From Bacillales bacterium UBA2753 (GTDB lineage: Bacteria > Bacillota_I > Bacilli_A > RFN20 > CAG-826), in assembly GCA_002353275.1 (NCBI GenBank), contig DEJH01000021.1, forward strand, positions 1-54,615: a stretch of 54,615 nucleotides of DNA, written 5' to 3'. A program made the translations under genes and the position numbers. Positions 4,559 to 37,146 of this stretch are shown one piece after another (positions within the stretch are counted from its first letter, which is position 1; each line of letters begins with the position of its first letter). The notes beneath the pieces are model-generated. The model did not search any database and was not told where the DNA came from. It saw nothing but the letters and a program-made list of their open reading frames with translations.

Positions 4559-7500
4559 ATATCGGTCCTTTCAAAGAAACCAAGGGTTTCAAGCGATTCA
4601 ATTGCATTTTTTAAATAACTATAATCTGTAATTGGCCATTTATAACCAAGGTGATACAAACTCTTATTAGTGAATTCATTATCACTCAAAATGAATGAGT
4701 GAGTGTGCATATCACTTGATGAATATGAAATTAGAGAAGAAACAAGCATGCTCTTAGATTCATCTAACATCATCTCTTTCATCGAAGCGAGGAATTCATC
4801 ATCAGGAGTAACTTCAATGTTAAAGCCAAGTTCATTTAAAACAGCGATAATATCTCCCATCTGCACCATATGTGAATTAGCGGAATGGAAGACAGTAAAT
4901 TTAGATGGAGTCTTGGCTAAAAGAATAATCGTTTTAGCGACTTCGTCAATTGGAGAGAAGTCAACTTCCACATCCATCGAATTAACAGGGTACTTTTTAA
5001 GAGTGACATATCCTTTTAAATCTCTCATGAAGCCATTAGTAATCGAGTTAGCTTGGAACTCACCATCTTTTTGTCGGCTCATTAAGTTACCGACACGGAT
5101 AATCTTGCCGTCTAATTTACCTTCATCAACCGCATTTAATAAGGCTTTTTCAGCATCAAATTTAGAGTGGACATATTTATTAGAGACATCTTGACCAAAG
5201 TCTAACATATCTTCTTTCATCCTGAAGGATGGCGCAAATTTCTCATCGATATTTTCTCCAGCAACGGATAAGGTGGAGATTTGGATTAAACGAGCGCCTT
5301 TCTTCTCAGCGATATTAATTAAATTTTTCACTCCACCGACATTAACTTGTTCAATGATGTCACTATTAGCGAAATGTTTAACAATCGCTGCAGAGTTAAT
5401 GATTAAATTAAAGTCGTAATCTTTTAATTTCTCATAAAGCGATTCATCTGTGACATCTCCATCAACAATTTCAACATATTCATTGACTTCATCAATTAAT
5501 GGGGAATCAAAATAATAGGCTAATAAAGCTAGGAGACGATCTTTCGCGTTAAGTTTGCCTCCTCTAATCAAAGCGACAACTTTCACTTTTTGATCTAATA
5601 ATTCTTTAAGAATATGAATTCCTAAAAATCCAGTTGAGCCAGTGAGAAGAACTTTTTTCACTTCAAAATCAATTTTGATATCGTTAACTTCACTGACGAC
5701 GTTATGGGAAAGAGAAGATAATTCTGCTTTTTCTTCTTTCTTTTCCTCTTTAGTTTCAACTTTACCTCCTGAAATAGAAGCGATATATTCTTCAAGTTCT
5801 AATACTGTGGAATGATCAAAGACATCACCATAAGCAATTGGTAATCCCATATTAAGCGCAAGCATCGCAACTTTAGAAACGCTTAAAGAAGTTCCTCCCA
5901 TTTCAAAGAAATCATCATCCACTCCAACTTCTTCTTTTCCAAGAGCTTTCTTAAATAAAGTTAAGAGTTTTTCTTCTAATTCGTTAGAAGCTTTCTTCAC
6001 TTCTTTATGTTCGACTTTCATTTCGATTTCTGGAAGTGATTTTTTATCAATCTTACCATTTGGGGTAAGTGGGAATTTATCTAACTGCATCACCACTTTT
6101 GGAACCATATATGGAGTTAAGTATTTACTCATATGATTAAGTAAATCATCTTTATCAACCTGGCTAGAGGCGGTGAAATAAGCGGCTAGATAATCGCCTT
6201 CGACTTGGCTTTGTTTTACTAAGATGATGCTTCTAGTAACTGTTTTATAAGAGTTAAGGACTCTTTCGATTTCATCGAGTTCTACTCTTAAGCCTCTTAA
6301 TTTGACTTGGTTATCAAGTCGACCAAAGAATTCAATATTGCCTTCACTATTAATTCGAGCCATATCACCACTTCGATAAGCTTTTATTCCATTAACTTCA
6401 ATAAATACTTCTTTAGTTTTTTCAGGCATTCCTAAATAACCTAAACCAACAGATTCTCCAGCGATTGTTAAATCTCCAATCGCGTTAGTTGGCAATAAGT
6501 GTCCTTTTTTATCAAGAATATAGGTTTTAGTATTAGCGACTGGTTTACCAATCGTCATATATTTATCTTTTACTAAAGAATAAGTTGCGGTAATCGTTGT
6601 TTCAGTTGGACCATAACCGTTAAGAATATTGGCATTAACTCCTAAATTTCTTAAGCGATTACATAATTCCATTGGAACAGCTTCCGCTCCCATATCGAGG
6701 TATTTAAATCCTTTTAGAGCCTCAACAAAGACATCGATGTCTAATAAGTTAGACACGAAGGAAGGAGTCATAAACATGAATTTCACTTTGTTATCTTTCA
6801 ATGTCTTAGCGAGCAACATTGGGTTTTCAATTTCTTCTTCACTAGCAATAACTGCGGTATAACCATGCGTTAAAGGAATGAATTCTTCTTGTAAAGAAGC
6901 ATCGAAAGAAAGAGAGGCAAATGAGCAAGAAACACATTCTTCTCCAATATCGCGATATGCGTGAGTGGCTAAGTTAGAGCCATCACTAACATAGTTAGCC
7001 AAATTCTTATGAGCGATCATCACTCCTTTTGGTCGACCAGTCGAGCCAGAAGTATAAATGACATAAGCTAAGGAAGAAAGTGGAATCTTCACATTAGGAT
7101 TTTTATCTTTTTTATTTTCTAAAATATCTTCAATTGCCAAAGCTTTAACTTTTGCTTCTTTAATTAAAGCTTGTTTTTCTTTAATGATATCTTTAGTGGA
7201 GATCAAATATTTGCTTCCTGAATTAGAGATGATATAACTCACTCGATCATCAGGATATTTAGGATCAACTGGGACAAAAGCTCCTCCACTTTTAACGATA
7301 CCTTGTCTAACAACATAGGATTCTTTAATTCGAGGCATGAACATGATTACACATTCACCAAGTTTAAGATTGTTATCGAGTAAAGTATGAGCGACTTTAT
7401 TAGCGCCACTATTGAGCTCTTGATATGTTAATTTACCGTTTTTAGCGATAACAGCAACTTTATCAGGGTGTTTGTCAGCTTTTTCTTCAAGAAGAATATT

Positions 7501-10500
7501 CACTGTCTTATTTTGGATTTCAACCTCAGTAGCGTTATTCTTCTTTAAGAATTCTTCATCATATTTTGGGAGAGTGTTAATTTCTCCAACACTCTTTTTA
7601 GTTAATAATTTATTTAAGACTAATTCATATAAACGGTTAAATGAATCAATTGTGTCTTTATTATAAATAGAAGTATCCCATTCATAATGAGCGCGATATT
7701 TATTATCTTCTAAGAAGATATCTAGCCCGAAATCACTCTTAGGAGTTTCACTTTCCATTAATATTGGAGTGACTTTATGTCCTCCGATTTCTTCAAAATT
7801 GAAGTTATCTCCTTGATAAGCGAAGATAATGTTCGCTTTTAAGTTATAATCGTTAACGATATCACCAAATGAATAAATATCATTTTCTTCTAAATTAGAG
7901 AGAAGTTCTTTCATCTCATTAAGCTTATTAAGAACATTTTCTTCATCATTATATTTAATAAAGACCGGTAAGGTTTTCACTAACATCGAAACTGTATTCA
8001 TCACTTTTGAAGATTTACGTCCGTTATATATAGTTTCGTAAAGCGCTTCTTCTTTATAAATGAATTTAGATAAGGTGAAAGCAAAGGCAAAATTAAACAA
8101 AGCGTTATTCGTTAATTTGTTTTTGCTTATGAATTCTTTAACTTTCTCATTATCTAAAGATAATGTGACATCAACGGATTCTAATTTAGATTCATCTAAG
8201 ACTTTTAAATCTTTCTTTAAAACATATTCTCCATCGACATCTTTAAGAACGTTATTATAGAAGGCTTTAGCCTTTTCTAATTTATCAGAAGCCAAATCGT
8301 CTTTTTCTTTTAAGGCCACTTCATAACCAGTAAATGATTCACTAGTTAATTCTTCTCCTAGATAAGCTTTATTAATATCCTCTAAGATAATTGCTTCAGA
8401 AGAACCATCGCAAAGGATATGATGGAAATCTAAGAAGAGATAATTTTCTTTCCCTTGATAGATTTCAACGCGATATAAAGTGGAATTTAAAATTGAGAAT
8501 GGTCTCACTAATTTCTTGATATCGATTTCTTCTTTGATTAAATCAACTTTGGCTTTTTCTTTATTGCGTTTAGCTAAAATATCACCATTATCATTCATAT
8601 ATAAGATTGATTTAAGATATGGGTGATTATCAATCGCTTTTTCCACTGCTACTTTTAATTTATTTAGATCGATATTCTTATCAAGTTTAAATAAATATGG
8701 AATGTTATAGTTTGTGGAATTAGCTTTAGAAACACATTCAACAAAAATTCCTTCTTGAGTTTTGCTTAATGGATATTCTTCTCTAATTTCATATCTCTTT
8801 TCTTCTTCTTTATTAGCGAGGAAAGAAGCTAAAGAGGCAATGGTTGGATTCTCTTTTAAGTCAGCGTTTTCCACTGATTTATCATATTTCTTTGATAAAA
8901 GAATCGTAAATCTAATCGAACTAACTGAAGTTAATCCAACTTCGAATATATCGTTAGTAACTCCGAATTGATCATGCCCAAGGATATCTTTTAAGATATC
9001 AAAGATCTCTTGTTCGTCTTTATTTCTTGGCGCGACAATTTCTTCTACTTTAAGTTCAGGAACTGGTAGAGCGCGTTTATTGACCTTTTGGTTTTGATTA
9101 AGTGGAATCTTATCGATTTGCATCGTATACGCTGGAACCATATATGGTGGCTTTCTTTCTAAGATAAAAGCGTTAAGAGATTCAACATCAATCTTTTTAT
9201 CGCTTACCACATAAGCAACGATATATTTCACTCCACTTGGGTCAGTGAAATCTTTAACAGTCGCATCTTTAATATTTGGATAATCTCTAATGACTTTTTC
9301 GACTTCAGAGAGTTCCACTCTAAAGCCACGTATTTTCACTTGTCCATCTTTTCGACCGATGAAATCAATTGTTCCATCTTCTAATAAGCGGACAATATCT
9401 CCAGTTTTATATAATCTTTCAAATTTTTCTTCTTTATCGATGAAGTTAGTTAAGAAAGCTTCTTTATTTTCTTTTTCTCTATTTAAATAGCCTCTAGCGA
9501 CTTGTGGGCCAGAAATATATAGTTCTCCACTAGTGAGAATAGGAAGTCTCTTCTTATTTTTATCTAAAACATAAATCTTATAGTCGGATAGGCATTTACC
9601 AATTGGGATACGGTGATAATTTTCTTTCACCTCTTGAGCGGTGCAGAAGACTGTTCCTTCAGTTGGTCCATATAAATTAAAGAATTTAACTCCTTTAGGT
9701 GGATCCATTGGAACAAGCTTTTCTCCTCCAACCATGAAATATTTAAGGGATTTAACTTCAATTTCACTGATGAATTGACGACCGACTTGAGTGGTCATAA
9801 ACGCATGGGTGATTTTGTTTTGATTATAATATTCACCAAGTTCAACAAGATTAAGTCTCATCTCATCAGGAATGATATATACGGTTGCTCCACTAGTAAG
9901 AGATGGATATAAATCCATCATATCAGCGTCAAAGCCATATGAAGCATAAGCAGCATTACGACATCCTACTCCTAAATTAAATTCTTGACGGTAATATCGA
10001 CAGAAACTAAAGATGTTACCGTGCTCTAACATAACTCCTTTAGGAACACCAGTTGAGCCAGAAGTATAAAGCATAATGAATAAATCTTTAGGGGATGGAC
10101 GGGTTTTGATTTCTCGATCATCTTTTAAAGAGAGTAAATCTTCAGTAAAGATCGTGTGTCCTTTAAAGTCATCGACTAAATCATCGAGTTCTTTCTCTCT
10201 AATAAGGATAATTGCACTACTATCTTTAACCATGAAAGTTAATCGATCTTTTGGATAAGACGGATCTAATGGTTGATAAGCGGCTCCACTTTTAATGACG
10301 CCTAAACTTGCTAAAACGATATATTCGCTTTTCTTAGTGAGAATAGAGACGACTTTTTCTTTTTTGGCACCGAGTCTAATTAATTCGTTAGCGATTCTCG
10401 TCGAGATTTGATCAACTTCTTTATAGGTATATTTTTTATCTTTATAGACCACTGCGATTTCATTAGGGTGTTTCTTCACTACTTCATAGAAATCATCAAG

Positions 10501-11781
10501 AATGGTTTTATTGTCTTCGATATATGGGAAATTAGTCTTATTAAATGAATCAAGTAATTTGATTTCTTCTTTATCGAGTAAATCAATATCGATCATTTTT
10601 TCTTTCTTTAAGAATTCAGATAAAACAATTTCATATTCTTTAATCAAATGCTTAATTGTGTTTTCTAAATATAAATCAGAACGATATTCAACCCAGATGA
10701 GATATTTTTCACCAAGTCGATGAAGTTCGATTGATAATTTTTCTTTTCCATCTTTTCTACCTAATGGAGTGACTTCAATCACTTTATTTTGATATGTTCC
10801 GGAATAGAAATAATCTCCTTGATAAGCGAATAAAACATCCGCGGAGACTCCTAAATCCTTATTCATATCACTAAATGGATAAGAGTTATGCTTGACGTTT
10901 TCAATTACTTCATCATTAGTCTTTTTTAAATAATCAGAGATTTTATCTTCGTCTTGATAATTTAAATAAAGTGGATAAGTTTTGACATAAGAGCCAAATG
11001 AATGACTAACTGATTCATCTCTTCCATTATTAACAGTGAGGAAAAGAGATTCGTTTTCCATATTGATCTTACTTAATAAATAAGAGAAGGCACTTAAGAA
11101 GAATGAAGAAGTTTTAATCTTTAACTTCTTAGTAAGAGATTTAACTTCTTTATCGGTAATCTTAATTTCTCTACGGATATTAGAATAAGAGACTTCTTTA
11201 TCTTGTTTATCTTCTACTGGAGTGGAATCGGTTTCAATTCCTCCCACTAGTTTTTCATAATAATCTTTAGCTTCTAAATATTTTTTGCTCTTTAAATCTT
11301 TTTCTTCTTTTAAGGCAAATTCATTAGCGTCACATTCTTCTTTTTTGATCTCTTTATTTTCTAAAGCAGCAAAGAAATCATTAATAAAGATATGAATGGA
11401 AGAACCATCCATAATGATGTGATGGAAATCAAAATAGAAGATATATTCATCTTTTACTTTGTAAAGCTTAAAGCGATATAAATGTTTATTTAATAATTCA
11501 TATGGGAGAGAAGTGATTTTTAATTCTTTAACTTCTTCAAGTTCAAGTTTGATCTCTTCTTTTTCAATATGTTTAACAATGTTTCCACTTTCATCAATGG
11601 AAAGAATGGTAAAGATATATGGGTGAGCGTCACACACTTTTTTTAACGCATCACTCACTTTTTTAAGAGTTACATCTTTTCCTAAATTAACAGTGTGAGC
11701 GAGGTTATAAGCATCTCCAGAAGATAAAGAAGAGATATATAATCCCTGTTCACTTTTAGATAACGGAAAGAATTTGTTCAT
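4555..11781 (-). CDS. Bimodular nonribosomal peptide synthetase, C-A-T-C-A-T-R (terminal thioester reductase)
   Basis: C1 HHIIMDG 11404-11424. A1 core LYTSGSTGVPKG about 10040-10075. T1 GLTS Ser codon 8926-8928. C2 HHILCDG 8404-8424. A2 core IYTSGSTGRPKG about 7030-7065. T2 GGTS Ser codon 5887-5889. R domain TGSTGFLG 5621-5652 and YVHSK 5161-5175. The ATG at 11781 is preceded by GGAGGG; the TTG-extended ORF to 11796 is unlikely. Confidence 0.95.
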   Translation of the reverse strand: MNKFFPLSKSEQGLYISSLSSGDAYNLAHTVNLGKDVTLKKVSDALKKVCDAHPYIFTILSIDESGNIVKHIEKEEIKLELEEVKELKITSLPYELLNKHLYRFKLYKVKDEYIFYFDFHHIIMDGSSIHIFINDFFAALENKEIKKEECDANEFALKEEKDLKSKKYLEAKDYYEKLVGGIETDSTPVEDKQDKEVSYSNIRREIKITDKEVKSLTKKLKIKTSSFFLSAFSYLLSKINMENESLFLTVNNGRDESVSHSFGSYVKTYPLYLNYQDEDKISDYLKKTNDEVIENVKHNSYPFSDMNKDLGVSADVLFAYQGDYFYSGTYQNKVIEVTPLGRKDGKEKLSIELHRLGEKYLIWVEYRSDLYLENTIKHLIKEYEIVLSEFLKKEKMIDIDLLDKEEIKLLDSFNKTNFPYIEDNKTILDDFYEVVKKHPNEIAVVYKDKKYTYKEVDQISTRIANELIRLGAKKEKVVSILTKKSEYIVLASLGVIKSGAAYQPLDPSYPKDRLTFMVKDSSAIILIREKELDDLVDDFKGHTIFTEDLLSLKDDREIKTRPSPKDLFIMLYTSGSTGVPKGVMLEHGNIFSFCRYYRQEFNLGVGCRNAAYASYGFDADMMDLYPSLTSGATVYIIPDEMRLNLVELGEYYNQNKITHAFMTTQVGRQFISEIEVKSLKYFMVGGEKLVPMDPPKGVKFFNLYGPTEGTVFCTAQEVKENYHRIPIGKCLSDYKIYVLDKNKKRLPILTSGELYISGPQVARGYLNREKENKEAFLTNFIDKEEKFERLYKTGDIVRLLEDGTIDFIGRKDGQVKIRGFRVELSEVEKVIRDYPNIKDATVKDFTDPSGVKYIVAYVVSDKKIDVESLNAFILERKPPYMVPAYTMQIDKIPLNQNQKVNKRALPVPELKVEEIVAPRNKDEQEIFDILKDILGHDQFGVTNDIFEVGLTSVSSIRFTILLSKKYDKSVENADLKENPTIASLASFLANKEEEKRYEIREEYPLSKTQEGIFVECVSKANSTNYNIPYLFKLDKNIDLNKLKVAVEKAIDNHPYLKSILYMNDNGDILAKRNKEKAKVDLIKEEIDIKKLVRPFSILNSTLYRVEIYQGKENYLFLDFHHILCDGSSEAIILEDINKAYLGEELTSESFTGYEVALKEKDDLASDKLEKAKAFYNNVLKDVDGEYVLKKDLKVLDESKLESVDVTLSLDNEKVKEFISKNKLTNNALFNFAFAFTLSKFIYKEEALYETIYNGRKSSKVMNTVSMLVKTLPVFIKYNDEENVLNKLNEMKELLSNLEENDIYSFGDIVNDYNLKANIIFAYQGDNFNFEEIGGHKVTPILMESETPKSDFGLDIFLEDNKYRAHYEWDTSIYNKDTIDSFNRLYELVLNKLLTKKSVGEINTLPKYDEEFLKKNNATEVEIQNKTVNILLEEKADKHPDKVAVIAKNGKLTYQELNSGANKVAHTLLDNNLKLGECVIMFMPRIKESYVVRQGIVKSGGAFVPVDPKYPDDRVSYIISNSGSKYLISTKDIIKEKQALIKEAKVKALAIEDILENKKDKNPNVKIPLSSLAYVIYTSGSTGRPKGVMIAHKNLANYVSDGSNLATHAYRDIGEECVSCSFASLSFDASLQEEFIPLTHGYTAVIASEEEIENPMLLAKTLKDNKVKFMFMTPSFVSNLLDIDVFVEALKGFKYLDMGAEAVPMELCNRLRNLGVNANILNGYGPTETTITATYSLVKDKYMTIGKPVANTKTYILDKKGHLLPTNAIGDLTIAGESVGLGYLGMPEKTKEVFIEVNGIKAYRSGDMARINSEGNIEFFGRLDNQVKLRGLRVELDEIERVLNSYKTVTRSIILVKQSQVEGDYLAAYFTASSQVDKDDLLNHMSKYLTPYMVPKVVMQLDKFPLTPNGKIDKKSLPEIEMKVEHKEVKKASNELEEKLLTLFKKALGKEEVGVDDDFFEMGGTSLSVSKVAMLALNMGLPIAYGDVFDHSTVLELEEYIASISGGKVETKEEKKEEKAELSSLSHNVVSEVNDIKIDFEVKKVLLTGSTGFLGIHILKELLDQKVKVVALIRGGKLNAKDRLLALLAYYFDSPLIDEVNEYVEIVDGDVTDESLYEKLKDYDFNLIINSAAIVKHFANSDIIEQVNVGGVKNLINIAEKKGARLIQISTLSVAGENIDEKFAPSFRMKEDMLDFGQDVSNKYVHSKFDAEKALLNAVDEGKLDGKIIRVGNLMSRQKDGEFQANSITNGFMRDLKGYVTLKKYPVNSMDVEVDFSPIDEVAKTIILLAKTPSKFTVFHSANSHMVQMGDIIAVLNELGFNIEVTPDDEFLASMKEMMLDESKSMLVSSLISYSSSDMHTHSFILSDNEFTNKSLYHLGYKWPITDYSYLKNAIESLETLGFFERTDI

Positions 11782-11852
11782 TTTCTGTCCCTCCAAATTA
11801 GTATTATGTTTCTATTTATATGTAATATAAGAATATTATAACGAGTATAAAC

Positions 11853-13590: not shown

Positions 13591-14340
13591 TTATTCTTTA
13601 AAAGATGCCCATGGATATTGAATCATATATTCTCCACGGTATAATCTAACCGCATCTGGATTATCTTTTTTATATTCGTAAGCGTCACAATCAATTTTAT
13701 TAACATCAATTGAATATCCATTAAATTTCTTAACAAAAACATCTTCACAATCAATTGATTTTAAACTTTGTTTGATATCCGCGATTAAGTTTCTTAGATA
13801 CGATTTATGATCTTCTTCCCACAAAATCGCATTGAGTTCATTGACATTAATTGATGAACCTTCTCGATCAATAAGATAGGCAAAAACTTCTTTTGATTTT
13901 TGATAAGAGAATTTTACAGGGCTTCCATTATGGAAAATTTCAAAATTGCCAAAGCATTTGACTTGGAGTTTTTTCTCACTTTTAAGATTAATAACATTAT
14001 CGAGTTCATCAATCTCGACTTTGATTTTATTTTCGTTAACTGGCTTAGTAATATATCCAGAAGCGTGAACGCGATACGCATCTAAGGCGTAATTATTATA
14101 AGCAGTCACAAAAATAATTTTAATTTTAGGATTGATTGATTTTAATTTTTTCGCAAGTTGAATCCCATTAAGTCCTGGCATTTCAATATCCAAAAAAGCG
14201 AGATCAAAATTAATATTAGATTCCATTACTTTTATAGGATTAGTGAAGGAAAAGAATTCGCTATCAGGCATCACCTTTTTACAAGCGTTTTCAAGTCTTA
14301 TTAATTGAAGTTCTTCATCATCTACTAAAAGTATTTTCAT
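13591..14340 (-). CDS. Response regulator: REC domain plus SARP/OmpR-type winged-helix DNA-binding domain
   Basis: MKILLVDDE...LDIEMPGLNG receiver. The C-terminal LQVKCFGNFEIFHNG..KSKEVFAYLI...LNAILWEED...LRNLI pattern is typical of SARP-type wHTH. Confidence 0.8.
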   Translation of the reverse strand: MKILLVDDEELQLIRLENACKKVMPDSEFFSFTNPIKVMESNINFDLAFLDIEMPGLNGIQLAKKLKSINPKIKIIFVTAYNNYALDAYRVHASGYITKPVNENKIKVEIDELDNVINLKSEKKLQVKCFGNFEIFHNGSPVKFSYQKSKEVFAYLIDREGSSINVNELNAILWEEDHKSYLRNLIADIKQSLKSIDCEDVFVKKFNGYSIDVNKIDCDAYEYKKDNPDAVRLYRGEYMIQYPWASFKE

Positions 14341-14342
14341 AA

Positions 14343-15605
14343 CTATTTATAAAATGTTACCACCGCTTTTGAGCCTTTATCAACTTCACTAGTAATCTCT
14401 AAAGAAGCATTACACATCGTTTTTAATCTTTGACGGATATTATTAATTCCGATGTGCTGATTTTTAGAAAAGTCGATATCGTTAATATTAAATCCTACTC
14501 CATCATCGATTACTTCAACGACATAAGCGTTAGAAGTTTCATAAGTTTTAAATAATAAAGTGCCACCTTCAATTTTCTTTAATATTCCATGTTTAATCGC
14601 ATTTTCCACTAAAGGTTGTAAGCTTAGAGGTGGGACATAAAAATCAGTAACCTTAATATCATAATTGATATTTAAGCGGTTATTAAATCTTAATTTTTCT
14701 AATGAAATATAAGTCTCAATGTGGCGTAATTCATCTTCAAAATGAATAAGACTAGTCTCGGTTAAAGAAGAGAGGTTAAGCCTAAGATATTCAGTGAAAT
14801 CATCTAAGGCTTTTTTGGCTTCAGAAGGATTGATATCGATTAATGTCGAAATTGAAGATAATGAATTATAGATGAAGTGAGGCTGAATCTGGCTCATCAT
14901 AATCTTAATTTGGGCTTCTTTATTCTTCTGTTGTTCTTTCGCTAATAAGATGTTCTTTTGAACATTAACAAAGAAGAAGAGGATTTCAATTGAAATAACA
15001 ATCGAGAAATAAGCAATCGCATATCCTTTTAAGAAATTTTGAACAATAATTGCTACTGCAGGAAGTAAACAATATATTCCAAAGGCAATCTTTTCTCTCA
15101 TCACTAGCTTTTTATTAAATAAAGTAATTAGGAGTACGATTGCTAAGATAATGAATTGATATCCTTGAGCAAAAATCATTGTTTTTGCTCTTACGTATTC
15201 TCCATTAATAGCGGTGAAAAACATGCCGTTAAAAATATTCAAGATATCTAAGAAGGTGAATATTCCAATTAATACGAGGTTAGCGATATAAATGATATTT
15301 TTATATTTCTTCTTCATTTCAATATAACTAAGAGTGTAAATCAGTAAGAAAAAGGCCTCCAAGTTATTAAAAATATAGAAGGTTGTATAAAAAGAAATTA
15401 CAAAGGTATTACTCGTGTAACTCATCTTAACGAAAGTGAAGGTAAGATAAGTTGCAAAATGGATGACAGTAAGGATGAAGAAATTAAGAAGAGTGTTCTC
15501 ATCAACCCTTCTATCTCTTTTAAGCAAAATATTGACAATATGGATCAAAAAGATCGCAATTCCGATGATACATACTGTAGCGTTAAATATCGAATTAGTG
15601 CTCAT
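14343..15605 (-). CDS. LytS/YehU-type sensor histidine kinase (multi-TM N-terminus, His_kinase plus HATPase_c)
   Basis: Six to seven TM helices, then QIQPHFIYNSL (PF06580-type H-box), ENAIKHG N-box and DDGVGF G-box. Ends 2 nt before the response regulator gene. Confidence 0.85.
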   Translation of the reverse strand: MSTNSIFNATVCIIGIAIFLIHIVNILLKRDRRVDENTLLNFFILTVIHFATYLTFTFVKMSYTSNTFVISFYTTFYIFNNLEAFFLLIYTLSYIEMKKKYKNIIYIANLVLIGIFTFLDILNIFNGMFFTAINGEYVRAKTMIFAQGYQFIILAIVLLITLFNKKLVMREKIAFGIYCLLPAVAIIVQNFLKGYAIAYFSIVISIEILFFFVNVQKNILLAKEQQKNKEAQIKIMMSQIQPHFIYNSLSSISTLIDINPSEAKKALDDFTEYLRLNLSSLTETSLIHFEDELRHIETYISLEKLRFNNRLNINYDIKVTDFYVPPLSLQPLVENAIKHGILKKIEGGTLLFKTYETSNAYVVEVIDDGVGFNINDIDFSKNQHIGINNIRQRLKTMCNASLEITSEVDKGSKAVVTFYK

Positions 15606-15840
15606 TTATATATCCTTATTTATATATTATATATAAGGAATAGAGAAAAACACATTGTTAACAATTTTATTTTTTTGCGTTATTTTAGAAACGTTATTAT
15701 AAAAAAGAGAGGTTATAGTCAACAATACCACATGAGATTTATAGTTTTCACAGGATGGTATTTTTTGGATTTCTGACTGCACCTTGATTGCTAAAACCGA
15801 TAATACACCAATTGATGATTAGTAGATGAACAAAAGGATG

Positions 15841-15873
15841 AAAAAAGGCCGAAGCACACATGGGCATCGGCCT
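15841..15873 (-). terminator. GC-rich rho-independent terminator of GC-rich gene A
   Basis: AGGCCGA/TCGGCCT stem followed by TTTTTT on the minus strand, 24 nt after the stop at 15897. Confidence 0.75.
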
Positions 15874-15896
15874 GGATTTGCGGTTAATCGTGGCCC

Positions 15897-16454
15897 CTAG
15901 CAGGAATACCAGATCGTGAGGGAGGAGATTGTAATGTTTACTTCTCCCAACGGCATCAATGCCGGACTGTCGTCAGGGGCAATTGATAGCCCTTTGTATT
16001 CTTGCCCGCTGGTGATGTGATGAATCATCGTCCCCATGCTCGAAAAATCCACGGAAATGGGCTCGGGTTCTTCTTGTTGTTCAACCGAGAAAGAAATCGC
16101 GAAGCCGGTGATGGTGCGGAACGGATAGGCGCCTTCGTCCTCCGCAAACACGTCGTAGTGGCTGAGCATGAGGTGGTGGAAGGAAACGTTTCTGAAGGTG
16201 AAGCCAGCCTCTTCCTTGTCCCATCCCACCACGCCGACCTTGTTGCCGGCGGCGGTCGTCGTGCCGATGGCGTAATCGCCGTCTACCTCCTTGACGGTCG
16301 TATTGCTTTCGTCGAAGGTGACACTGTACTCAGTTGGATCTGCTTTTACCGCAAATGTATCTAATTGATTTGCTACGCCAACAACTAAAGCGGTAACGCC
16401 AACTGTGCAAGCTAACACTCCCATTGAGGCTAATAATAATGCTTTTTTCTTCAT
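15897..16454 (-). CDS. Secreted/anchored protein A: AT-rich signal-peptide exon-like 5' part joined to a GC-rich mature domain (185 aa, ends ..SLTIWYSC)
   Basis: AAGGAG RBS. MKKKALLLASMGVLACTVGV... leader. Composition switches to about 55-60% GC at about 16330. Shadow ORFs appear on other frames only in the GC-rich part. Confidence 0.7.
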   Translation of the reverse strand: MKKKALLLASMGVLACTVGVTALVVGVANQLDTFAVKADPTEYSVTFDESNTTVKEVDGDYAIGTTTAAGNKVGVVGWDKEEAGFTFRNVSFHHLMLSHYDVFAEDEGAYPFRTITGFAISFSVEQQEEPEPISVDFSSMGTMIHHITSGQEYKGLSIAPDDSPALMPLGEVNITISSLTIWYSC

Positions 16455-16704
16455 ATTTTCTTTAAACTCCTTAAGATAAATAATTTTAGATAAATAATTA
16501 ATTGTTTTTATTTTATAAAAGAAGAAAAAGGAGATTCAAGCACTTTGTGTGCTATAGAGTGTCATTTTTCTTTTTTTATACTTAACTCTATACATTGCGT
16601 TGGTTTTTGATTGAAATGTTTACAAGTCTCGCGATATTTTTCGATTTTGTCCTACAATATAATAAAAGGATATACATAATTGTATATCCTTAATCTACTT
16701 TTTT
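16331..16704. repeat. Direct repeat copy A (terminator hairpin, promoter/leader and signal-peptide codons)
   Basis: Aligns with 17513-17872. About 97% identity over the signal-peptide codons and about 95% over the distal 120 nt; more diverged around the RBS-proximal leader. Confidence 0.9.
16655..16691 (-). terminator. Terminator hairpin inside repeat copy A
   Basis: AAGGATATACA-TAAT-TGTATATCCTT perfect 11-bp stem followed by TTTTATTATATT on the minus strand. Confidence 0.7.
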
Positions 16705-16730
16705 GAGTTCATTGTCCAATTATAACACAA

Positions 16731-16870
16731 TTCGTACAGCAAGGGTAAAAAATGCAAGTGAAGTTCGTACATTTGCAAGTGACTTTCGTACACTTCTTGA
16801 AAAAGTATCGATTACATCGAGGTTTTTAACCACATGCAATCGTACGCAATCACCTGCATGCCGTACGCAA
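16731..16870. repeat. Iteron-like array of five CGTAC-core repeats
   Basis: TTCGTACA at 16731, 16764 and 16785, the last two within TGCAAGTGA(A/C)(G/T)TTCGTACA 21-mers. CGTACGCAA at 16841 and 16862, within (C)ATGC(A/C)..CGTACGCAA 17-mers. Spacings are 33, 21, 56 and 21 nt. Confidence 0.6.
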
Positions 16871-16966
16871 AATATTTTTTGAGGTATCATTTTGATGATA
16901 TTTTTGCCGTTTTTGTGTCTAAATTGGTTAAATAGTTGAAGTGCCTCCACCACCGCATCTAGATGC

Positions 16967-17001
16967 AAAAAACAGGGCCGCCTTTGCTTGCAGCAAACCC
17001 C
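16967..17001 (-). terminator. GC-rich terminator of GC-rich gene B
   Basis: GGGGTTTGC..GCAAAGGCGGCCC hairpin followed by TGTTTTTT on the minus strand, 20 nt after the stop at 17022. Confidence 0.65.
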
Positions 17002-17021
17002 GTAACTTGACTAGCGCGATA

Positions 17022-17636
17022 TCAGCAGTCCCAAGTAAGGCTCAGGCTCTCGATGTACAAATTGGTTTCCGGCGAATCATACATGGAGTAGAGACTTACA
17101 TTGACTTCAACCACGGTTCCGTCGGTAGGCCCTTTGTCCCATTCGAGGTGCGCGGTGCCGTTCCCATCCCCGTCGAGTTCGAAAGAGGAGTGCCAATACC
17201 CGACCTGGTTTCTGTCGCCGTCGAGCAGAGTGATACTGTACTCGTCCTCCGTGTCCACGTCGTTTTCGACGCCCATGTCGATCGCGAAATGGGTGAGGTT
17301 GTTTATTCCGATCATCAGGGAGTAGCCGCAATCCCCTAAAAACGGTTCCGCTCTCACGAACCTTCCGGACTGCCCGAAGGTGAGCTCCATGGACTCCGGC
17401 GCGACCGTTGTGTGGATGGGGTCGGATACGCCGGTTGTGACATTAACGTCTTGAGGACCCGGCCCGGACTCGAACTGGTCTCCGGTGGCGGCGTCGAAGG
17501 TGAAGCTATGCCCAGTTGGATCTGCTTTTACCGCAAATGTATCTAATTGATTTGCTCCGCCTACAACTAAAACGGTAACGCCAACTGTGCAAGCTAACAC
17601 TCCCATTGAGGCCAATAATAATGCTTTTTTCTTCAT
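17022..17636 (-). CDS. Secreted/anchored protein B, paralog of A (204 aa, ends ..SLSLTWDC)
   Basis: True start is the ATG at 17636 (same RBS and leader as gene A); the track ORF to 17735 is an upstream extension. 39 of the first 41 residues are identical to A. GC-rich from about 17512 downward. Confidence 0.7.
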   Translation of the reverse strand: MKKKALLLASMGVLACTVGVTVLVVGGANQLDTFAVKADPTGHSFTFDAATGDQFESGPGPQDVNVTTGVSDPIHTTVAPESMELTFGQSGRFVRAEPFLGDCGYSLMIGINNLTHFAIDMGVENDVDTEDEYSITLLDGDRNQVGYWHSSFELDGDGNGTAHLEWDKGPTDGTVVEVNVSLYSMYDSPETNLYIESLSLTWDC

Positions 17637-17872
17637 ATTTTCTTTAAACTCCTTTAAACAAAATAATCGATTAATTTCTTTTATTTTATAAGAGGAGAAA
17701 AGAGGGGACAAGCACTTTGTGCTATAGAGTTCCACTTTTATTTTTTATACTTAACTCTATACATTGCATTGGTTTTTGATTGAAATGTTTACAAGTCTCG
17801 CGATATTTTTCGATTTTGTTCTTAAATATAATAAAAGGATATACATAATGTATATCCTTAACCTACTTTTTT
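17513..17872. repeat. Direct repeat copy B, flush with the 3' end of tRNA-Thr
   Basis: See copy A. The repeat begins at the T-run that immediately follows (and shares one base with) the tRNA CCA end. Confidence 0.9.
17824..17859 (-). terminator. Terminator hairpin after tRNA-Thr (inside repeat copy B)
   Basis: AAGGATATACA-TAA-TGTATATCCTT stem followed by a T-rich tract on the minus strand. Confidence 0.7.
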
Positions 17873-17945
17873 GGTGCCTCCTGCCAGAATCGAACTAGCA
17901 ATAGATCCTTACCATGGATCCGTTATACCACTTAACTAAGGAGGC
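17872..17945 (-). tRNA. tRNA-Thr (anticodon GGU)
   Basis: Cloverleaf folded by hand: acceptor GCCTCCT/AGGAGGC, anticodon stem GATCC/GGATC with loop ATGGTAA, T-arm GCTAG-TTCGATT-CTGGC, encoded CCA. Confidence 0.9.
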
Positions 17946-17971
17946 ATAAGTTGATTTAATCAACGCTATTG

Positions 17972-18000
17972 ATTATAAAGGACACTACTATTTTTAACAA
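17972..18000 (-). promoter_or_regulatory. Sigma-70-type promoter for tRNA-Thr
   Basis: TTGTTA-17 nt-TATAAT on the minus strand, 27 nt upstream of the tRNA 5' end. Confidence 0.65.
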
Positions 18001-18008
18001 GTAATAAA

Positions 18009-20426
18009 TTATTCTTTTTTGAGTGAGAGAATAAAGTTATAAACGATTGTGGCGGCATTCTCTAATTCAGAACGACTTAAATATCCCTCTTTAAGAGCTT
18101 TCTTGATATCTTTAATGTCATCTTTACTACCAGGCATACAGATGTTATTTCCATTTTTTAAGTTTCTAGAGGCATAGGCTGCTGGATAGACATTTCCTTT
18201 TTTATAAACTTGTCCACTTTTAATCCAGTCAGTCATGATTAATCCATCATATCCCCATTCAGTTCTTAAGATATCTAAGATTAATCCACGATGTTCTGCT
18301 GCGTGAATTCCATCAATAAGGTTATACGCAGTCATTATTGATTTAGGATTAGACCATTTAATCGCTTTATAAAAAGCTGGAAGATAAATTTCTCTAATCG
18401 CTTTTTCGGAAACAATAGAGTTGTTATTGATACGGTTAGTTTCTAAATTATTACAAGCGAAATGTTTAATGGTAACTGCTTTATGTGGGTTTTCTTGAAC
18501 AGCGTTAATGATGTTAGAGGCACTAAAGGCACTCACTAAAGGATCTTCGGAAAAATATTCAAAATTACGTCCACATAACAAATGACGATGAATATTAATT
18601 CCAGGAGCGAGCCACACATCAACATTATAGATTTCCATCTCTTCTTTTACTAACCTACCACAAGTTGATTGAACCGTAGAAGAAAATGACTGAGCTAAAG
18701 CAGTTGCTATTGGGATAGCGGTTGCCCCTTGAATAATATGACTTCCCTTTTTATTTTTATTTCTTTCATAACTTAATAAATATGGAAGAGGAGCGGGTAA
18801 ATATTTCTCAAGCGTGTACCAAATTGAATCTCCAGTAATTGGGAATTCACCTTTATCGTTAACAATATATTCTTCAGTGAGTCTAAGTCCAGCAGGGCCA
18901 TCTACCATATTAATCGCATATTCTAAAGAAGGGATTCTTAAGGTTGTTTCTCCTGCTCCTCCATTTACTAAAGAACAAGATTGACCAATTAAACCATTAA
19001 CCCCAGTTTTATAATCCCCTAAACAAAGAAGAATTAATTCATCATCTTTTAAAGAAGATATATATTCAGGTATCTCAATATTTTTAACCATGTAATCTAT
19101 TGATTCGGTTGAGAAGATATATGGATCAATTTCCACTATTTTAATTCCTTTTTCTATTTTTACTTCTTCTCTATCAATGACTAAATCTGAGAAATCAGGT
19201 TTATCAAAAACATTTCTTACTTGTTTTAAGATCACACTTTTACTTAAAGAAAGAACAACAGCTTCTTTTAACGAATCACTACTATTACCAAAATAGACGT
19301 GATAATTACCTTTATTAAGCATATAAGCTTGTTCTTCTATTGAATAAAGAGGAAATTCTCTTAATGAGAAATTTAATTCAAGAATTTCACTTTCTTTTTC
19401 TTTGATTTCATTACTCTTTTTAAAGGCCACTAATTCGAGTTTTGGGCGTGGAGAAGGAGCGGAAATATAGACTTGAATTACTTCTTTTCCAGAAAGATTA
19501 CCAACGTTAGTGACTTTAACCTTCAAAGATACTTTATCACCTTCGACTTTATATTCTAATAATTGAGAGGTAAATTCAGTGTAAGATAAGCCAAATCCGA
19601 ATGGAAAAATTGGTTTAATATTTTTAGAAGAGAAATATCGATATCCGACATAACTTCCTTCTAAATATTTTGTTTCATCTTCACTTATTGGAGTAGAGAT
19701 ATATGGATAATCTTTAATATAAGCGTAAGTATCAGTTAATTTTCCACTTGGATTAATTTTTCCTAAAACGATATCCACTAAAACGTCAGAAGTAACTGAA
19801 CCGAGTTGAGAAAGCAAAAGAATATTTTTCACATCCTTTATTTTCTCTAAATCAATGATATTAGGAGTGTTAAGTACTAATAAGAATTTTTCATAATTAT
19901 CATTAAGATAATGGATGTCTCTGACTTCAGTATCGCTAAGATAGACGTCTCCTTTTTCAAGTCGGCGATCACTATTTTCTCCTCCGTTACGTGAAAGAAC
20001 ATAAATGGCGACTTTTTTATCTCCATTAATTGCAAAATTATATTCAGGTTCTAATATTTCTTTTCCAAGAGCATAGCTAGGGGCCATTGTTTTATGTTTT
20101 TTGGCTTCTTTTTTTATTTCTTTAACGAAATCTTTTTCATTTTTCTCTCTAATTTCGTCATATTGATCTAGCCAACTAGTTGAATCGATTTTAAAACCAG
20201 CGTTAATAAACGCCTCTTCAATTGTTGGTTTATATCTAGTGTTAACTGCCCCACTTCCTGTTCCACCTATAACAGTGTGTCTAACTCCATTACCGATTAA
20301 AGTAACATTAGTTACTTCTTTAAGTGGAAAAGAATTATCTTTTTTAAGAAATAGAGTACATTCTCCTGCTACTTTTCGTAATTCGTTGATGTGATTAATT
20401 TCATGAGGCAGTAACTCTTTATTCAT
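18009..20426 (-). CDS. Glycoside hydrolase family 3 beta-glucosidase with permuted domain order
   Basis: GH3 catalytic-domain motifs (GRNFEYFSEDPL, KHFACNN, GLIMTDW nucleophile) lie in the C-terminal 250 aa. The sandwich/Fn3-like part is N-terminal. Confidence 0.8.
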   Translation of the reverse strand: MNKELLPHEINHINELRKVAGECTLFLKKDNSFPLKEVTNVTLIGNGVRHTVIGGTGSGAVNTRYKPTIEEAFINAGFKIDSTSWLDQYDEIREKNEKDFVKEIKKEAKKHKTMAPSYALGKEILEPEYNFAINGDKKVAIYVLSRNGGENSDRRLEKGDVYLSDTEVRDIHYLNDNYEKFLLVLNTPNIIDLEKIKDVKNILLLSQLGSVTSDVLVDIVLGKINPSGKLTDTYAYIKDYPYISTPISEDETKYLEGSYVGYRYFSSKNIKPIFPFGFGLSYTEFTSQLLEYKVEGDKVSLKVKVTNVGNLSGKEVIQVYISAPSPRPKLELVAFKKSNEIKEKESEILELNFSLREFPLYSIEEQAYMLNKGNYHVYFGNSSDSLKEAVVLSLSKSVILKQVRNVFDKPDFSDLVIDREEVKIEKGIKIVEIDPYIFSTESIDYMVKNIEIPEYISSLKDDELILLCLGDYKTGVNGLIGQSCSLVNGGAGETTLRIPSLEYAINMVDGPAGLRLTEEYIVNDKGEFPITGDSIWYTLEKYLPAPLPYLLSYERNKNKKGSHIIQGATAIPIATALAQSFSSTVQSTCGRLVKEEMEIYNVDVWLAPGINIHRHLLCGRNFEYFSEDPLVSAFSASNIINAVQENPHKAVTIKHFACNNLETNRINNNSIVSEKAIREIYLPAFYKAIKWSNPKSIMTAYNLIDGIHAAEHRGLILDILRTEWGYDGLIMTDWIKSGQVYKKGNVYPAAYASRNLKNGNNICMPGSKDDIKDIKKALKEGYLSRSELENAATIVYNFILSLKKE

Positions 20427-36800: not shown

Positions 36801-37146
36801 GTTCTCTATTATAACCATCTCCAGGGTCATTATAACTACTTGCAAAAGCGCTACCAGGAGCATAATTAGTTACATCTGAATAGATATCATATAGTTTAGA
36901 GTTTGTTATTTTATCAGTAACAGCATATGCTGCCTTTAATCCATCATAACCAACCCAACTAGGATTTTTAATCTTGCCATTAATGCTAGTTAAAAGCGCT
37001 GTGTCAGTGCCACTAACAGTTGAATAATACGTTTCTAAATCAGTTGCAGCCTCTACTTGTTTCGCTTCTTTATTAGGAGCAACAACAAAAGATACCGCTA
37101 ATGAGGTAGCAAAAATCGTAGCCGCAATTAAGTGTTTGAATTTCAT
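33877..37146 (-). CDS. Surface-anchored Endonuclease I-family nuclease with Big_2/Big_3-like repeats and a C-terminal TM anchor
   Basis: Signal peptide. NREHTIPKSWW, DLFIVLPSDAKINGVRSNYPYG, NRNPFIDHP (Endonuclease I motifs). Ig-like repeats (ITWSSSDTTVATVS; VTVTYSGKTATYDITV). Ends with a TM helix plus RKKKED. Confidence 0.75.
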   Translation of the reverse strand: MKFKHLIAATIFATSLAVSFVVAPNKEAKQVEAATDLETYYSTVSGTDTALLTSINGKIKNPSWVGYDGLKAAYAVTDKITNSKLYDIYSDVTNYAPGSAFASSYNDPGDGYNREHTIPKSWWNDGTTKQGCDLFIVLPSDAKINGVRSNYPYGITANGASWKMDDDTYENRYGTSTATQYVSGTVFEPFDNRKGDLARIYFYAVACYWSGGEGAGKVTNWTNGDGAKVFKASGKNGFVQKYLDMLLKWHHDDPVSDWEISRNTKVQGQQNNRNPFIDHPSWVDLIWGGTYPSTGANWEDTSSGEVVNGKLTPSVGITSISKNSVTLTEGQSTTINAISSNSGEITWSSSDTTVATVSPTKAASGSNVTINAVAASNTPVTITASITISGQTYSKSCSVTVNEYVPVKLATPTPTFNNSTKKVSWPNVASATSYQVKVDSGSYVTATSPYDVSGLTTGAQHTLSVIAKAGSGYTDSDAGSVTFTPTTGGGGGSIEVTASTSISNYASSNSWENATKYTSVQLDAVATASVGTGGSNTGKYYSNSGEWRFYQSESATIVISVLDDYTLESVTFTYNVSSTGQLKDSLENDVNSEDSVSLSGTSATFTVGNSGSATNGQVKFTSISVTYSYQSGGSVTLTSITLNTSAVKKSFTINDVFTYAGLVVTANYSDTSSEVVESGYTVSTPDLTQTGNKTVTVTYSGKTATYDITVADAPISSITATVNKTYYVGETIVSSDITVTDNNGNNVDGFTFELENYQFDYEDAASGGSLTSKTFKSAVEYSNLTCDLTVQVQRKEYETIVPTISWNKVTSVSSLSIGDVIVIADSVQSVALSTTQNDNNRGSVAITKSNNTISWTAGDVVPQQLTLTSTANIQGAPADSFGLYTGDGYLYGAGASKNYLRTQSTNNVNGAFAITFSNGIATINATASTNRANIRSNYSNNPSIFSCYASDATTGNAVEIYKKSGGTDTQSPENVANYIMYEDTNNQCTTKFTIAKGYFEELTVEGRNTFMSSSDYVISTARERLEAWARHQGKTIDYVNGDYSISNISRIPAILNNSINNTTIIVVVTVGIATIAIGGYFLLRKKKED

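Follow-up and report, generated by a model that had tools for sequence, protein, structure and literature searches.

How do two adjacent genes in an AT-rich chromosome come to change base composition abruptly within their own coding sequences? The question is raised by genes A and B of Bacillales bacterium UBA2753, which lie in tandem on the minus strand of contig DEJH01000021.1; the whole stretch of 54,615 nucleotides (nt) that was analysed is called the window here. Gene A (15897-16454) encodes 185 amino acids (aa) and gene B (17022-17636) encodes 204 aa. The start of gene B is the ATG at 17636 behind AAAGGAG, which is common to all homologues; the open reading frame (ORF) lister had gone to a GTG at 17735. 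An earlier, sequence-only reading of the locus had proposed that foreign cassettes were repeatedly swapped behind a resident expression and secretion module. This interpretation is upheld by the existence of donor genes at native composition, by mapped breakpoints, and by recurrence of the mosaic in other genomes. We consider it likely that alleles of a variable surface or secreted protein were repeatedly replaced by alleles from a GC-rich lineage, through recombination at short conserved flanks.

Compositional step within the two genes

In 100-nt windows, the G+C fraction was 0.48 to 0.65 in 15850-16350 and 16950-17550 versus 0.19 to 0.44 in the flanks. These are the sole GC islands of the window, with a top 300-nt value of 0.59 inside them and 0.43 elsewhere. 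The G+C content at third codon positions (GC3) rises between leader and mature part from 0.26 to 0.715 in gene A and from 0.29 to 0.736 in gene B. The other 31 ORFs of the window have a GC3 of 0.255 ± 0.039 (range, 0.18 to 0.33), from which the mature parts deviate with z≈12. The maximum-likelihood change points in GC3 fall after codon 41 of gene A (first GC-type codon at 16331) and after codon 43 of gene B (17507), at or near the positions of about 16331 and about 17513 that had been read from the letters. The GC-rich mature segments in AT-rich surroundings that had been described are thus real, and the compositional chimera in both genes is far beyond chance.

Most of the finer features named in the sequence-only reading were also recovered. 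Shadow ORFs are present at 16002-16364, 16941-17339, 17101-17325, and 17107-17331. The two leaders are identical at 39 of 41 residues, differing at residues 22 and 27, and the mature parts share their starts (YSVTFD in A and HSFTFD in B) and their ends (SLTIWYSC and SLSLTWDC). Each gene is followed by a GC-rich hairpin with a U-run, folding at -14.9 kcal/mol (z -3.3) for A and at -12.9 kcal/mol for B, as expected of the terminators that had been claimed. The suggestion that Cys16 lies in a lipobox (VLAC) was not sustained. The residue varies among homologous leaders (VLAS, FLVG, VLASAA) and is Ser, Leu, or Ala in many of them, including P0004, the MKKKLFLFTSIG.. leader type, and the leader type of the GC-rich lineage, indicating that VLAC is no lipobox.

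Two host lineages and two leader types

Among the loci fetched for comparison, the leader type predicts the composition of the host without exception. On AT-rich contigs (flank GC, 0.32 to 0.36), 15 of 15 family genes have an AT-type leader or hydrophobic core, in the form MKKKALLLASMGVLACTVG..NQLD..VKADP or as the variant MKKKLFLFTSIG.. already mentioned. The GC3 of these leaders is 0.12 to 0.31 in 12 genes, and it reaches 0.42 and 0.58 in two mosaic leaders with a GC-rich linker of the donor. The cassettes behind them have a GC3 of 0.65 to 0.75 in 14 of the 15 genes and of 0.37 in the remaining one (locus L027). On GC-rich contigs (flank GC, 0.44 to 0.54), all 17 distinct family genes, 16 of them full length and one truncated, have a GC-type leader, MKKTIIASLAVLASAAV..GKFG..VNADP or ..GGGPKLNAIFEAKATSKSF, with a GC3 of 0.70 to 0.80. 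There the whole family gene is at host composition, and neighboring genes have a GC3 of 0.70 to 0.72, equal to that of the cassettes. Contigs of this lineage reach 817 kb and carry PolC, Dxr, and RseP.

The recurrence of the mosaic in 14 of the 15 AT-host genes makes the window one instance of a general pattern. Comparison with related loci, as the sequence-only reading had proposed, revealed the same mosaic on AT-rich contigs of independent assemblies. It was seen in SPAdes, MEGAHIT, RUG, RGIG, JGI, and Logan assemblies, and the arrangement of the window itself was found on three contigs of 50 to 200 kb. The AT-rich relatives carry these chimeras and not uniformly GC-rich genes; family genes that are GC-rich including the leader exist only in the different lineage of about 53% G+C. 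A gradient of amelioration, in which subtypes confined to AT hosts would be old residents that have drifted to host composition, was considered and rejected. Only L027 is low in GC3 (0.37), while L029, L035, and L036 are at 0.66 to 0.72, indicating that there is no simple gradient.

Breakpoints at the nucleotide level

Comparison of gene B with locus L021, on a 117-kb contig of 53% G+C, gave 94% nucleotide identity from AGCTTCACCTTC (the SFTF codons) to about 10 nt beyond the T-run of the terminator. Outside that span, the promoter, the leader, and the downstream region are unalignable, with random identity. Gene A is about 88% identical to its counterpart in L034 (52% G+C) from TACAG(T/C)GTCACCTTCGAC, which encodes YSVTFD, to about 20 nt past the stop codon, and the identity is lost outside.

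The best-resolved case is the pair L024 and L025. L024 is an AT-rich locus that lies behind another tRNA and has the same upstream module as the window; L025 is a GC-rich locus with three tandem paralogues. The two are 99.6% identical from the TFD codons to the stop codon. In the terminator, the identity is about 88%, with all seven differences being GC→AT in the AT host, and it is gone about 15 nt after the T-run. This pattern indicates that the newest exchange comprised the mature domain alone. The terminator and the tail of about 100 nt behind it belong to an older, partly AT-shifted layer in this case. The proposal that mature domain and terminator move as one cassette therefore stands as regards exchange behind a fixed module, whereas the newest exchange in the best-resolved case left the terminator out.

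There are at least three classes of junction. In L020/P0123 and L029/P0163, the switch occurs right after the hydrophobic core, at conserved Gly-Gly codons. The sequence conserved in both lineages consists of a 5' stretch of about 11 to 18 nt, TCACCTTC(G/A)AC, and, on the 3' side, of the last strand, the terminator, and the tail.

Direction, recency, and number of events

The synonymous divergence (dS) of cassettes across the two lineages is 0.03 to 0.15, with values of 0.058 for gene B and L021, 0.143 for gene A and L034, and 0.03 for L024 and L025. Among AT hosts, cassette dS is 0.06 to 0.09. The dS of the neighboring MiaB gene, compared between the window, L007, L020, and L032, which share the tRNA-Thr locus, is 1.1 to above 2. 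In nucleotide identity, the B cassettes are at 0.91 to 0.95 versus 0.63 to 0.80 for MiaB.

To polarize the changes, sites invariant in three GC-host B cassettes were selected, and changes at these sites were counted in the AT-host copies; the converse test was made in the GC hosts. The AT-host B cassettes had 36 GC→AT changes versus 6 AT→GC changes, while the changes in GC hosts were balanced. This indicates transfer from the GC-rich to the AT-rich lineage followed by incipient amelioration. At least 10 distinct mature-domain subtypes are common to both leader types at 0.87 to 0.99 amino acid identity, a distribution that points firmly to many independent transfer events.

The resident 5' module and its two copies

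The AT-rich module that precedes each cassette is present twice, in direct repeat on the minus strand. Copy 1, before gene B, extends over 17508-17873 and includes leader codons 1 to 43. It contains a hairpin (17835-17859), the palindrome TAGCACAAAGTGCTTG (17709-17724), a sigma-70-like promoter found by promoter scan (TTGTCC-17-TAAAAT, 17711-17683), and a ribosome-binding site, AAAGGAG (17655-17649), ahead of the ATG at 17636. Copy 2, before gene A, extends over 16331-16705, includes leader codons 1 to 41, and is 89.6% identical to copy 1 over 376 nt. It likewise has a hairpin (16666-16691), a promoter-like site from the same scan (TTGAAT-18-TAAAAT, 16539-16510), and a ribosome-binding site, AAGGAG (16472-16467), with the ATG at 16454. 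The direct repeat as a whole is about 395 nt long (16310-16705 and 17492-17873) and about 90% identical, with 93 to 96% identity in the longest ungapped blocks. It runs from the hairpin through the promoter, the 5' untranslated region (5'UTR), the ribosome-binding site, and the leader into the opening codons of the mature part. The upstream one of the two copies begins at the 3' end of tRNA-Thr(GGT) (17872-17945, minus strand; detected by ARAGORN and by Rfam as tRNA at 59.9 bits), where the first unit starts. A search of Rfam with 15600-18100 returned the tRNA only and no known leader RNA in the 5'UTRs.

The core of the module, from about -110 to codons 41 to 43, is 76 to 90% identical at the nucleotide level among the AT-lineage loci compared. 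It is common, up to the junction, to 12 of 12 aligned AT-lineage genes (11 loci), and L035 and L036 are alike by eye. It consists of the palindrome AGCACAAAGTGCT, a -35 element TTG(C/T)(T/C)C, a (CTC)n pyrimidine spacer, the -10 element TATAAAAT, then about 50 nt of 5'UTR that include AAAGGAG, and the leader. Genes of the GC-rich lineage have the same promoter layout in a GC-rich form, CTTGCC-pyrimidine spacer-TATAAT, which indicates that the family is old in both lineages and that only the 3' part is mobile between them. The dS of the leader module among AT genomes (0.09 to 0.7) is below that of MiaB, suggesting homogenization or exchange of the module inside the AT lineage and never across lineages. 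The leader consists of MKKK followed by about 23 hydrophobic residues, and in all leader types a conserved V-[KN]-A or A-K-A stands three to six residues before the first strand. Given the length of its hydrophobic and c regions, the leader may be an uncleaved N-terminal anchor instead of a cleaved Sec signal.

Sequence beyond the core varies by locus and may be tRNA-Thr, tRNA-Arg, tRNA-Asn plus tRNA-Glu, or an rve-type insertion sequence (IS). The order MiaB-(GH3)-tRNA-Thr-family gene recurs in L007, L020, and L032. In the AT lineage, family genes are placed immediately 3' to at least four different kinds of tRNA gene, namely, Thr-GGT, Arg-TCT, Asn plus Glu, and another one in L024. The tRNAs upstream of family genes are at L007:4751-4824, L008:5425-5501, L020:5713-5786, L027:5107-5268, L032:7684-7757, and L024:1-55. 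The same hairpin-containing stretch of about 120 nt occurs behind two different tRNAs, in the window and in L024. In four AT-lineage loci, a divergent rve-type transposase gene (335 to 342 aa, HTH_21+rve) abuts the promoter module at ..CT(A/C)TAG; these genes, of two IS variants, are at L007:4863-5891, L015:~1-1060, L027:5313-6320, and L029:143-1150. Possibly the IS disperses the gene unit, or possibly the site is no more than its target. In the relatives, the boundaries of the IS showed no clear terminal inverted repeats.

Cassettes, terminators, spacer, and tail

Cassette B (16955-17507, minus strand) comprises codons 44 to 204 of the mature domain (stop codon at 17022-17024), an intrinsic terminator predicted by folding at about 16966-17003, and about 10 nt beyond. 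Cassette A (15828-16330, minus strand) comprises codons 42 to 185 (stop codon at 15897-15899) and its intrinsic terminator at 15846-15873. Neither gene is followed by an immunity ORF; the terminator comes directly and then the second unit or an unrelated histidine kinase gene.

Past the A terminator, multiple alignment of downstream regions revealed a noncoding tail of about 100 nt, ..CTAATC(A/G)TC(A/G)(A/T)TTGGTG(T/C)ATTA..TTTAGCAAT.., that is conserved behind family A terminators of both lineages. It was seen in the window (15740-15827, minus strand, where it is AT shifted) and in L004, L007, L012, L016, L022, L025, L027, and L029; blastn matches of L020, L027, and L029 extend to window positions 15770-15787. 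Its conservation suggests that the tail is probably an older 3' homology arm, although it may instead be a small RNA or a binding site. In two loci (L001:~10620-10800 and L020:~6610-6860), a family B gene with its own terminator is followed by a remnant of a family A 3' end, ..TTCCTGCTAG, and an A-type terminator. These remnants suggest that B cassettes once displaced most of an A gene.

The two units are separated by a spacer (16706-16954, minus strand) with a G+C fraction of about 0.35. It contains a 21-nt tandem direct repeat (16753-16794), an extended -10-like element, TGTTATAAT, at 16727-16719 (minus strand), and a repeat pair TTGCGTACG..TGCA at about 16815-16855. The spacer may provide gene A with a regulated promoter farther upstream. 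The AT-lineage loci compared have no counterpart of it, and an 82-aa ORF in the spacer had no family match.

A six-frame hidden Markov model (HMM) search and blastn detected no further or silent cassette copies in the window, only the two expressed-type genes. The window also contains no AT-rich alternative mature domain for these leaders, and no inverted copies of the junction motif were found. A Pfam scan of 21 of the 31 window ORFs of at least 120 aa returned no recombinase, integrase, transposase, or reverse transcriptase. As had been noted from the letters, no immunity gene or silent cassette was found in the window and, among the scanned ORFs, no recombinase.

Protein family, fold, and selection

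A search of 5.8 billion proteins recovered full-length relatives for both proteins (139 for A and 38 for B), with cross-matches between A and B through the leader only. Nearly all relatives are without a name; those with one are from metagenome-assembled genomes of rumen origin labeled "Erysipelotrichaceae bacterium" or "Bacilli bacterium." Among 1.84 billion cluster representatives, just 49 clusters were found with a profile. Neither protein matched a family in Pfam, NCBIfam, or PHROGs (only a spurious TMEM238 match at an E value of ≤1), sequence-profile comparison with the PDB gave nothing meaningful, and a full-text literature search found neither the family nor the phenomenon described. 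We conclude that these beta-sandwich proteins with a signal peptide form a family not described before.

The mature domains of A and B are confidently modeled as beta-sandwiches by AlphaFold (AF2), with a predicted local distance difference test score above 90 from about residue 41 on (residues 41 to 204 in B). Foldseek matched the B model to the carbohydrate-binding modules (CBMs) CBM16 (2zex) and CBM4 and to the C-terminal lectin-like domains of phage tailspikes with E values of 3e-6 to 4e-5. The template modeling scores are 0.35 to 0.44 when normalized to the query and at most 0.58 when normalized to the target, at 10 to 16% sequence identity, so the likeness of the B model to CBM/jelly-roll folds is weak, a resemblance of fold class only. 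The A model had no significant structural neighbor in Foldseek (best E value, 0.015). Profile-profile alignment of A with B is limited to the leader and the first strand, and the mature domains are therefore not demonstrably homologous.

Of 11 cassette pairs, 10 have a ratio of nonsynonymous to synonymous divergence (dN/dS) of about 0.6 to 1.4, while that of L024/L025, which are nearly identical, is 0.09; MiaB has about 0.1 to 0.2. From these comparisons, the ratios indicate what is probably relaxed or diversifying selection on an exposed protein. In the remote, longer relatives P0201 and P0192, the ..I.(I/V).Y.C strand is internal and further domains follow, indicating that the conserved Cys marks the last strand of the domain and not a free C terminus. 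In two GC-lineage loci (L001:14465-16408 and L025:5309-7105), a gene for Peptidase_S41, a C-terminal processing protease, lies a few kilobases from the family genes, which may be of interest because the ..Y(S/T)C end of the proteins is invariant.

Proposed mechanism

Under the explanation that we favor, A and B are tandem members of a small, fast-evolving family distributed over two rumen lineages of Erysipelotrichaceae/Bacilli type, one of about 33% G+C (that of the window) and one of about 53%. The architecture is common to the members: a promoter with a pyrimidine-rich spacer is followed by the leader, the first strand with (Y/H)S(V/F)TF, the variable body, the Cys-ended last strand, the terminator, and the tail. 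In the AT lineage, the 5' module with its regulatory palindrome, promoter, ribosome-binding site, and leader is old and resident, and the mature-domain segment is repeatedly replaced by DNA of the GC lineage faster than it drifts to host composition. The comparisons above demonstrate the mosaic itself, its donor lineage, its recurrence, its breakpoints, and the direction and recency of transfer, whereas the pathway of recombination, the way in which DNA enters, and the function and location of the proteins are inferred. DNA released by GC-rich neighbors would enter AT-rich cells and recombine with the resident family gene. The 5' crossover would usually occur in the conserved 5' stretch, where the TFD/TFN codons lie, and in rarer cases at the "GG" codons (GGCGGAG) behind the hydrophobic core, and the 3' crossover would occur in the conserved last-strand, terminator, or tail region. 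The outcome would be a fusion in frame, with the resident module of the host providing for its expression and export. Two things would fix the 5' boundary: recombinants that lack the native promoter or leader would probably be neither expressed nor exported, and upstream homology is absent. The tandem pair of the window would stem from a duplication of the ~395-nt module or from gene conversion between its copies. The driver may be diversifying selection on the exposed protein, rewarding novel alleles.

Several points weigh against this explanation. The junctions of this particular assembly are supported only indirectly. The recombination pathway is one that we infer, and the conserved 5' stretch is short for RecA-type recombination, so that the first fusion would have needed microhomology or an unknown enzyme. 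The subtypes L029, L035, and L036, found in AT hosts only, are GC rich although no close relative from the GC lineage was sampled; unsampled donors or a force that preserves G+C would be needed for them. The fetched DNA contained no orthologue common to both lineages by which to gauge their relatedness. Function, export, and signal peptide cleavage are predicted, and family A is the one with no significant structural neighbor.

Alternative explanations

We see an outside chance that there is a standing, essentially one-way import by a dedicated or semidedicated mechanism that uses the junction codons and the 3' hairpin and tail and is possibly linked to the IS or to tRNA genes. If true, this would amount to in-frame, integron-like borrowing of another organism's surface repertoire, e.g., for ligand matching or for escape from phages, protozoa, or immunoglobulin A. 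In its strict form, a recombinase encoded elsewhere or by the adjacent rve-type IS would recognize ..AGYGTCACCTTCGAC at the junction together with the hairpin and tail on the 3' side, and it would insert promoterless mature-domain cassettes in frame, as in an integron or an expression site. The very uniform, sharp junctions, the hairpin and tail behind every A cassette in both lineages, the placement of AT-lineage units behind several different tRNA genes, and the transposase gene abutting the module in four loci are all consistent with it. The chance of the strict form is nevertheless slimmer still, given that none of the 21 scanned ORFs encodes a recombinase, integrase, or transposase, that free or silent cassettes are absent from the window, and that no copies occur on viral contigs. 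Moreover, several alternative junction positions exist, as homology-guided crossovers would give, the 3' hairpin is followed by a U-run, as ordinary terminators are, and the synonymous conservation at the junction is accounted for by the codon bias of the donor. A phage vector was also considered and dropped, as no relatives were found on the viral contigs of IMG/VR.

Vertical inheritance of a segment that was ancestrally GC rich or was acquired once long ago, with its G+C kept by selection on amino acid content, mRNA structure, or codon choice, would explain why nearly all AT-lineage members are GC rich in the same segment, including the subtypes with no sampled relative in the GC lineage, and why the tRNA-Thr-adjacent locus is conserved among diverged AT genomes. 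We consider it quite improbable, as the cassettes differ so little between lineages while the dS of the host MiaB is saturated, and as cassette subtypes interleave between host lineages. The excess of G+C is at third positions and equals the GC3 of the donor genomes, and mutation in AT hosts erodes it (36:6), one subtype being already down to 0.37.

A metagenome assembly chimera, in which AT-rich and GC-rich organisms of one sample were joined at shared k-mers, is very improbable. In its favor, the two lineages share the rumen as habitat, loci of the GC lineage turn up in the same samples (ERZ27247011), and the junction lies within a conserved motif. Such an artifact would have required two false in-frame joins per gene (AT→GC→AT) at a motif of about 11 to 18 nt, repeated across assemblers and studies and, for the arrangement of the window, on all three long contigs. 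In addition, AT-host cassettes are 91 to 95% identical to the GC-host copies, and not 100%, with host-specific GC→AT changes, and no AT-rich mature domain is left over in the window to pair with these leaders.

Passage of cassettes from the AT-rich to the GC-rich lineage, with which symmetric identities and the larger number of recovered proteins with AT-type leaders (117, versus 42 with GC-type leaders) would agree, has a negligible likelihood, as the cassette GC3 matches that of GC-lineage neighbors and is about 12 standard deviations from the AT host, GC-host genes are compositionally uniform, and derived changes are AT biased in AT hosts only.

Comparison with known systems

Mosaic surface-protein genes generated by interspecies or interstrain homologous recombination are known from Borrelia ospC, pneumococcal pspA and pbp, Neisseria porB and opa, and streptococcal emm. 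By analogy, these are the closest known kind. They have in common with the family described here a variable exposed protein, a conserved 5' leader and flanks, alleles acquired horizontally, sharp breakpoints, discord between allele and host, and high dN/dS. The present case differs in the gap of about 20 GC points between donor and recipient, which renders the mosaic visible as a compositional step, in the in-frame crossover a few codons from the end of the signal peptide, and in the strongly one-way flow. It also differs in occurring in uncultured rumen commensals and in a family without a sequence relative in Pfam, NCBIfam, or PDB.

Two further analogies had been drawn in the sequence-only reading, and neither is supported. 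In the variable-surface loci of mycoplasmas (vsa of M. pulmonis, vsp of M. bovis, and vlp of M. hyorhinis), a conserved 5' end with promoter and signal peptide likewise precedes variable 3' parts, and tandem paralogues have homogenized 5' ends. In the window, in contrast, no silent promoterless cassettes, no inversion sites, and, among the 21 scanned ORFs, no site-specific recombinase were found, and both copies have their own promoter-like site. The variation here comes from foreign DNA and not from an internal archive, and the leader is no lipoprotein signal. Polymorphic toxin systems (CdiA-CT and Rhs) undergo C-terminal displacement and also combine a constant N-terminal trafficking part with an exchangeable C-terminal part and a demarcation motif at the junction. 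Here the exchanged part is a beta-sandwich of 140 to 160 aa with no toxin domain by Pfam, NCBIfam, PHROGs, or the AF2 folds, and the window contains neither an immunity ORF nor orphan cassettes.

The SVM (sequence-variable mosaic) signal-peptide proteins of phytoplasmas (Pfam PF12113) are similar in that many mature proteins, unrelated or variable, stand behind a single conserved signal peptide in AT-rich relatives among the Mollicutes and Bacilli. No PF12113 match was found here, and only two mature-domain families stand behind the leader, both xenologous and GC rich. The cassettes resemble those of integrons as promoterless, hairpin-ended units with a resident promoter that are shared between distant hosts. 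Unlike in integrons, there is no IntI or attI among the scanned window ORFs, the fusion is translational and in frame, and the 3' hairpin with its U-run is read as an intrinsic terminator. Unlike the target of a diversity-generating retroelement, the cassette segments have no second copy in the window, and the scanned ORFs include no reverse transcriptase.

Neighboring genes

On one side, the locus is flanked by tRNA-Thr(GGT) and a GH3 glycosidase gene. On the other side, directly downstream of gene A, lie genes for a histidine kinase of PF06580 type and for a response regulator (13591-14340 and 14343-15605, minus strand). A functional link to this adjacent pair was considered and rejected: the kinase beside a GC-lineage homologue (L001) is 29% identical and in another orientation, indicating that synteny is not conserved. 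An assignment of the response regulator to LytTR was also dropped, as its output domain of about 140 aa had no Pfam match.

The rest of the window is ordinary chromosome, with MiaB-like, ABC transporter, nonribosomal peptide synthetase (NRPS), glycosidase, cardiolipin-synthase-like, and nuclease genes. The NRPS (4555-11796, minus strand; 2,413 aa, annotated from a TTG start) has two modules (C-A-T-C-A-T) and a terminal reductase domain. Two unusual fusions combine HATPase_c_2 with other domains, namely, a SpoIIE phosphatase with a HATPase_c_2 kinase-like domain at 306-2492 and a MatE transporter with HATPase_c_2 at 2804-4558, both on the minus strand. A 1,089-aa protein with Endonuclease_1 and Big_3 domains (33877-37146, minus strand) is probably an extracellular nuclease, and a smaller Endonuclease_1 gene adjoins MiaB in L032 (5433-6314). 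This could bear on the handling of environmental DNA.

Implications

The family provides an unusually clean natural case in which the unit of horizontal transfer is one protein domain. Segments of about 500 nt pass between bacteria that are 20 GC points apart, repeatedly in frame a few codons past the signal peptide and throughout the family. This suggests that the signals for expression and export are kept native while the exposed part of the protein is treated as exchangeable. For annotators, it means that compositional "islands" can start inside a gene. If a specialized mechanism underlies the precision of the junctions, the case would be of wider interest. The decay of cassettes from GC to AT is a built-in compositional clock for turnover in an uncultured gut ecosystem, and the beta-sandwich family stands out as one that is probably under strong diversifying selection in the rumen.

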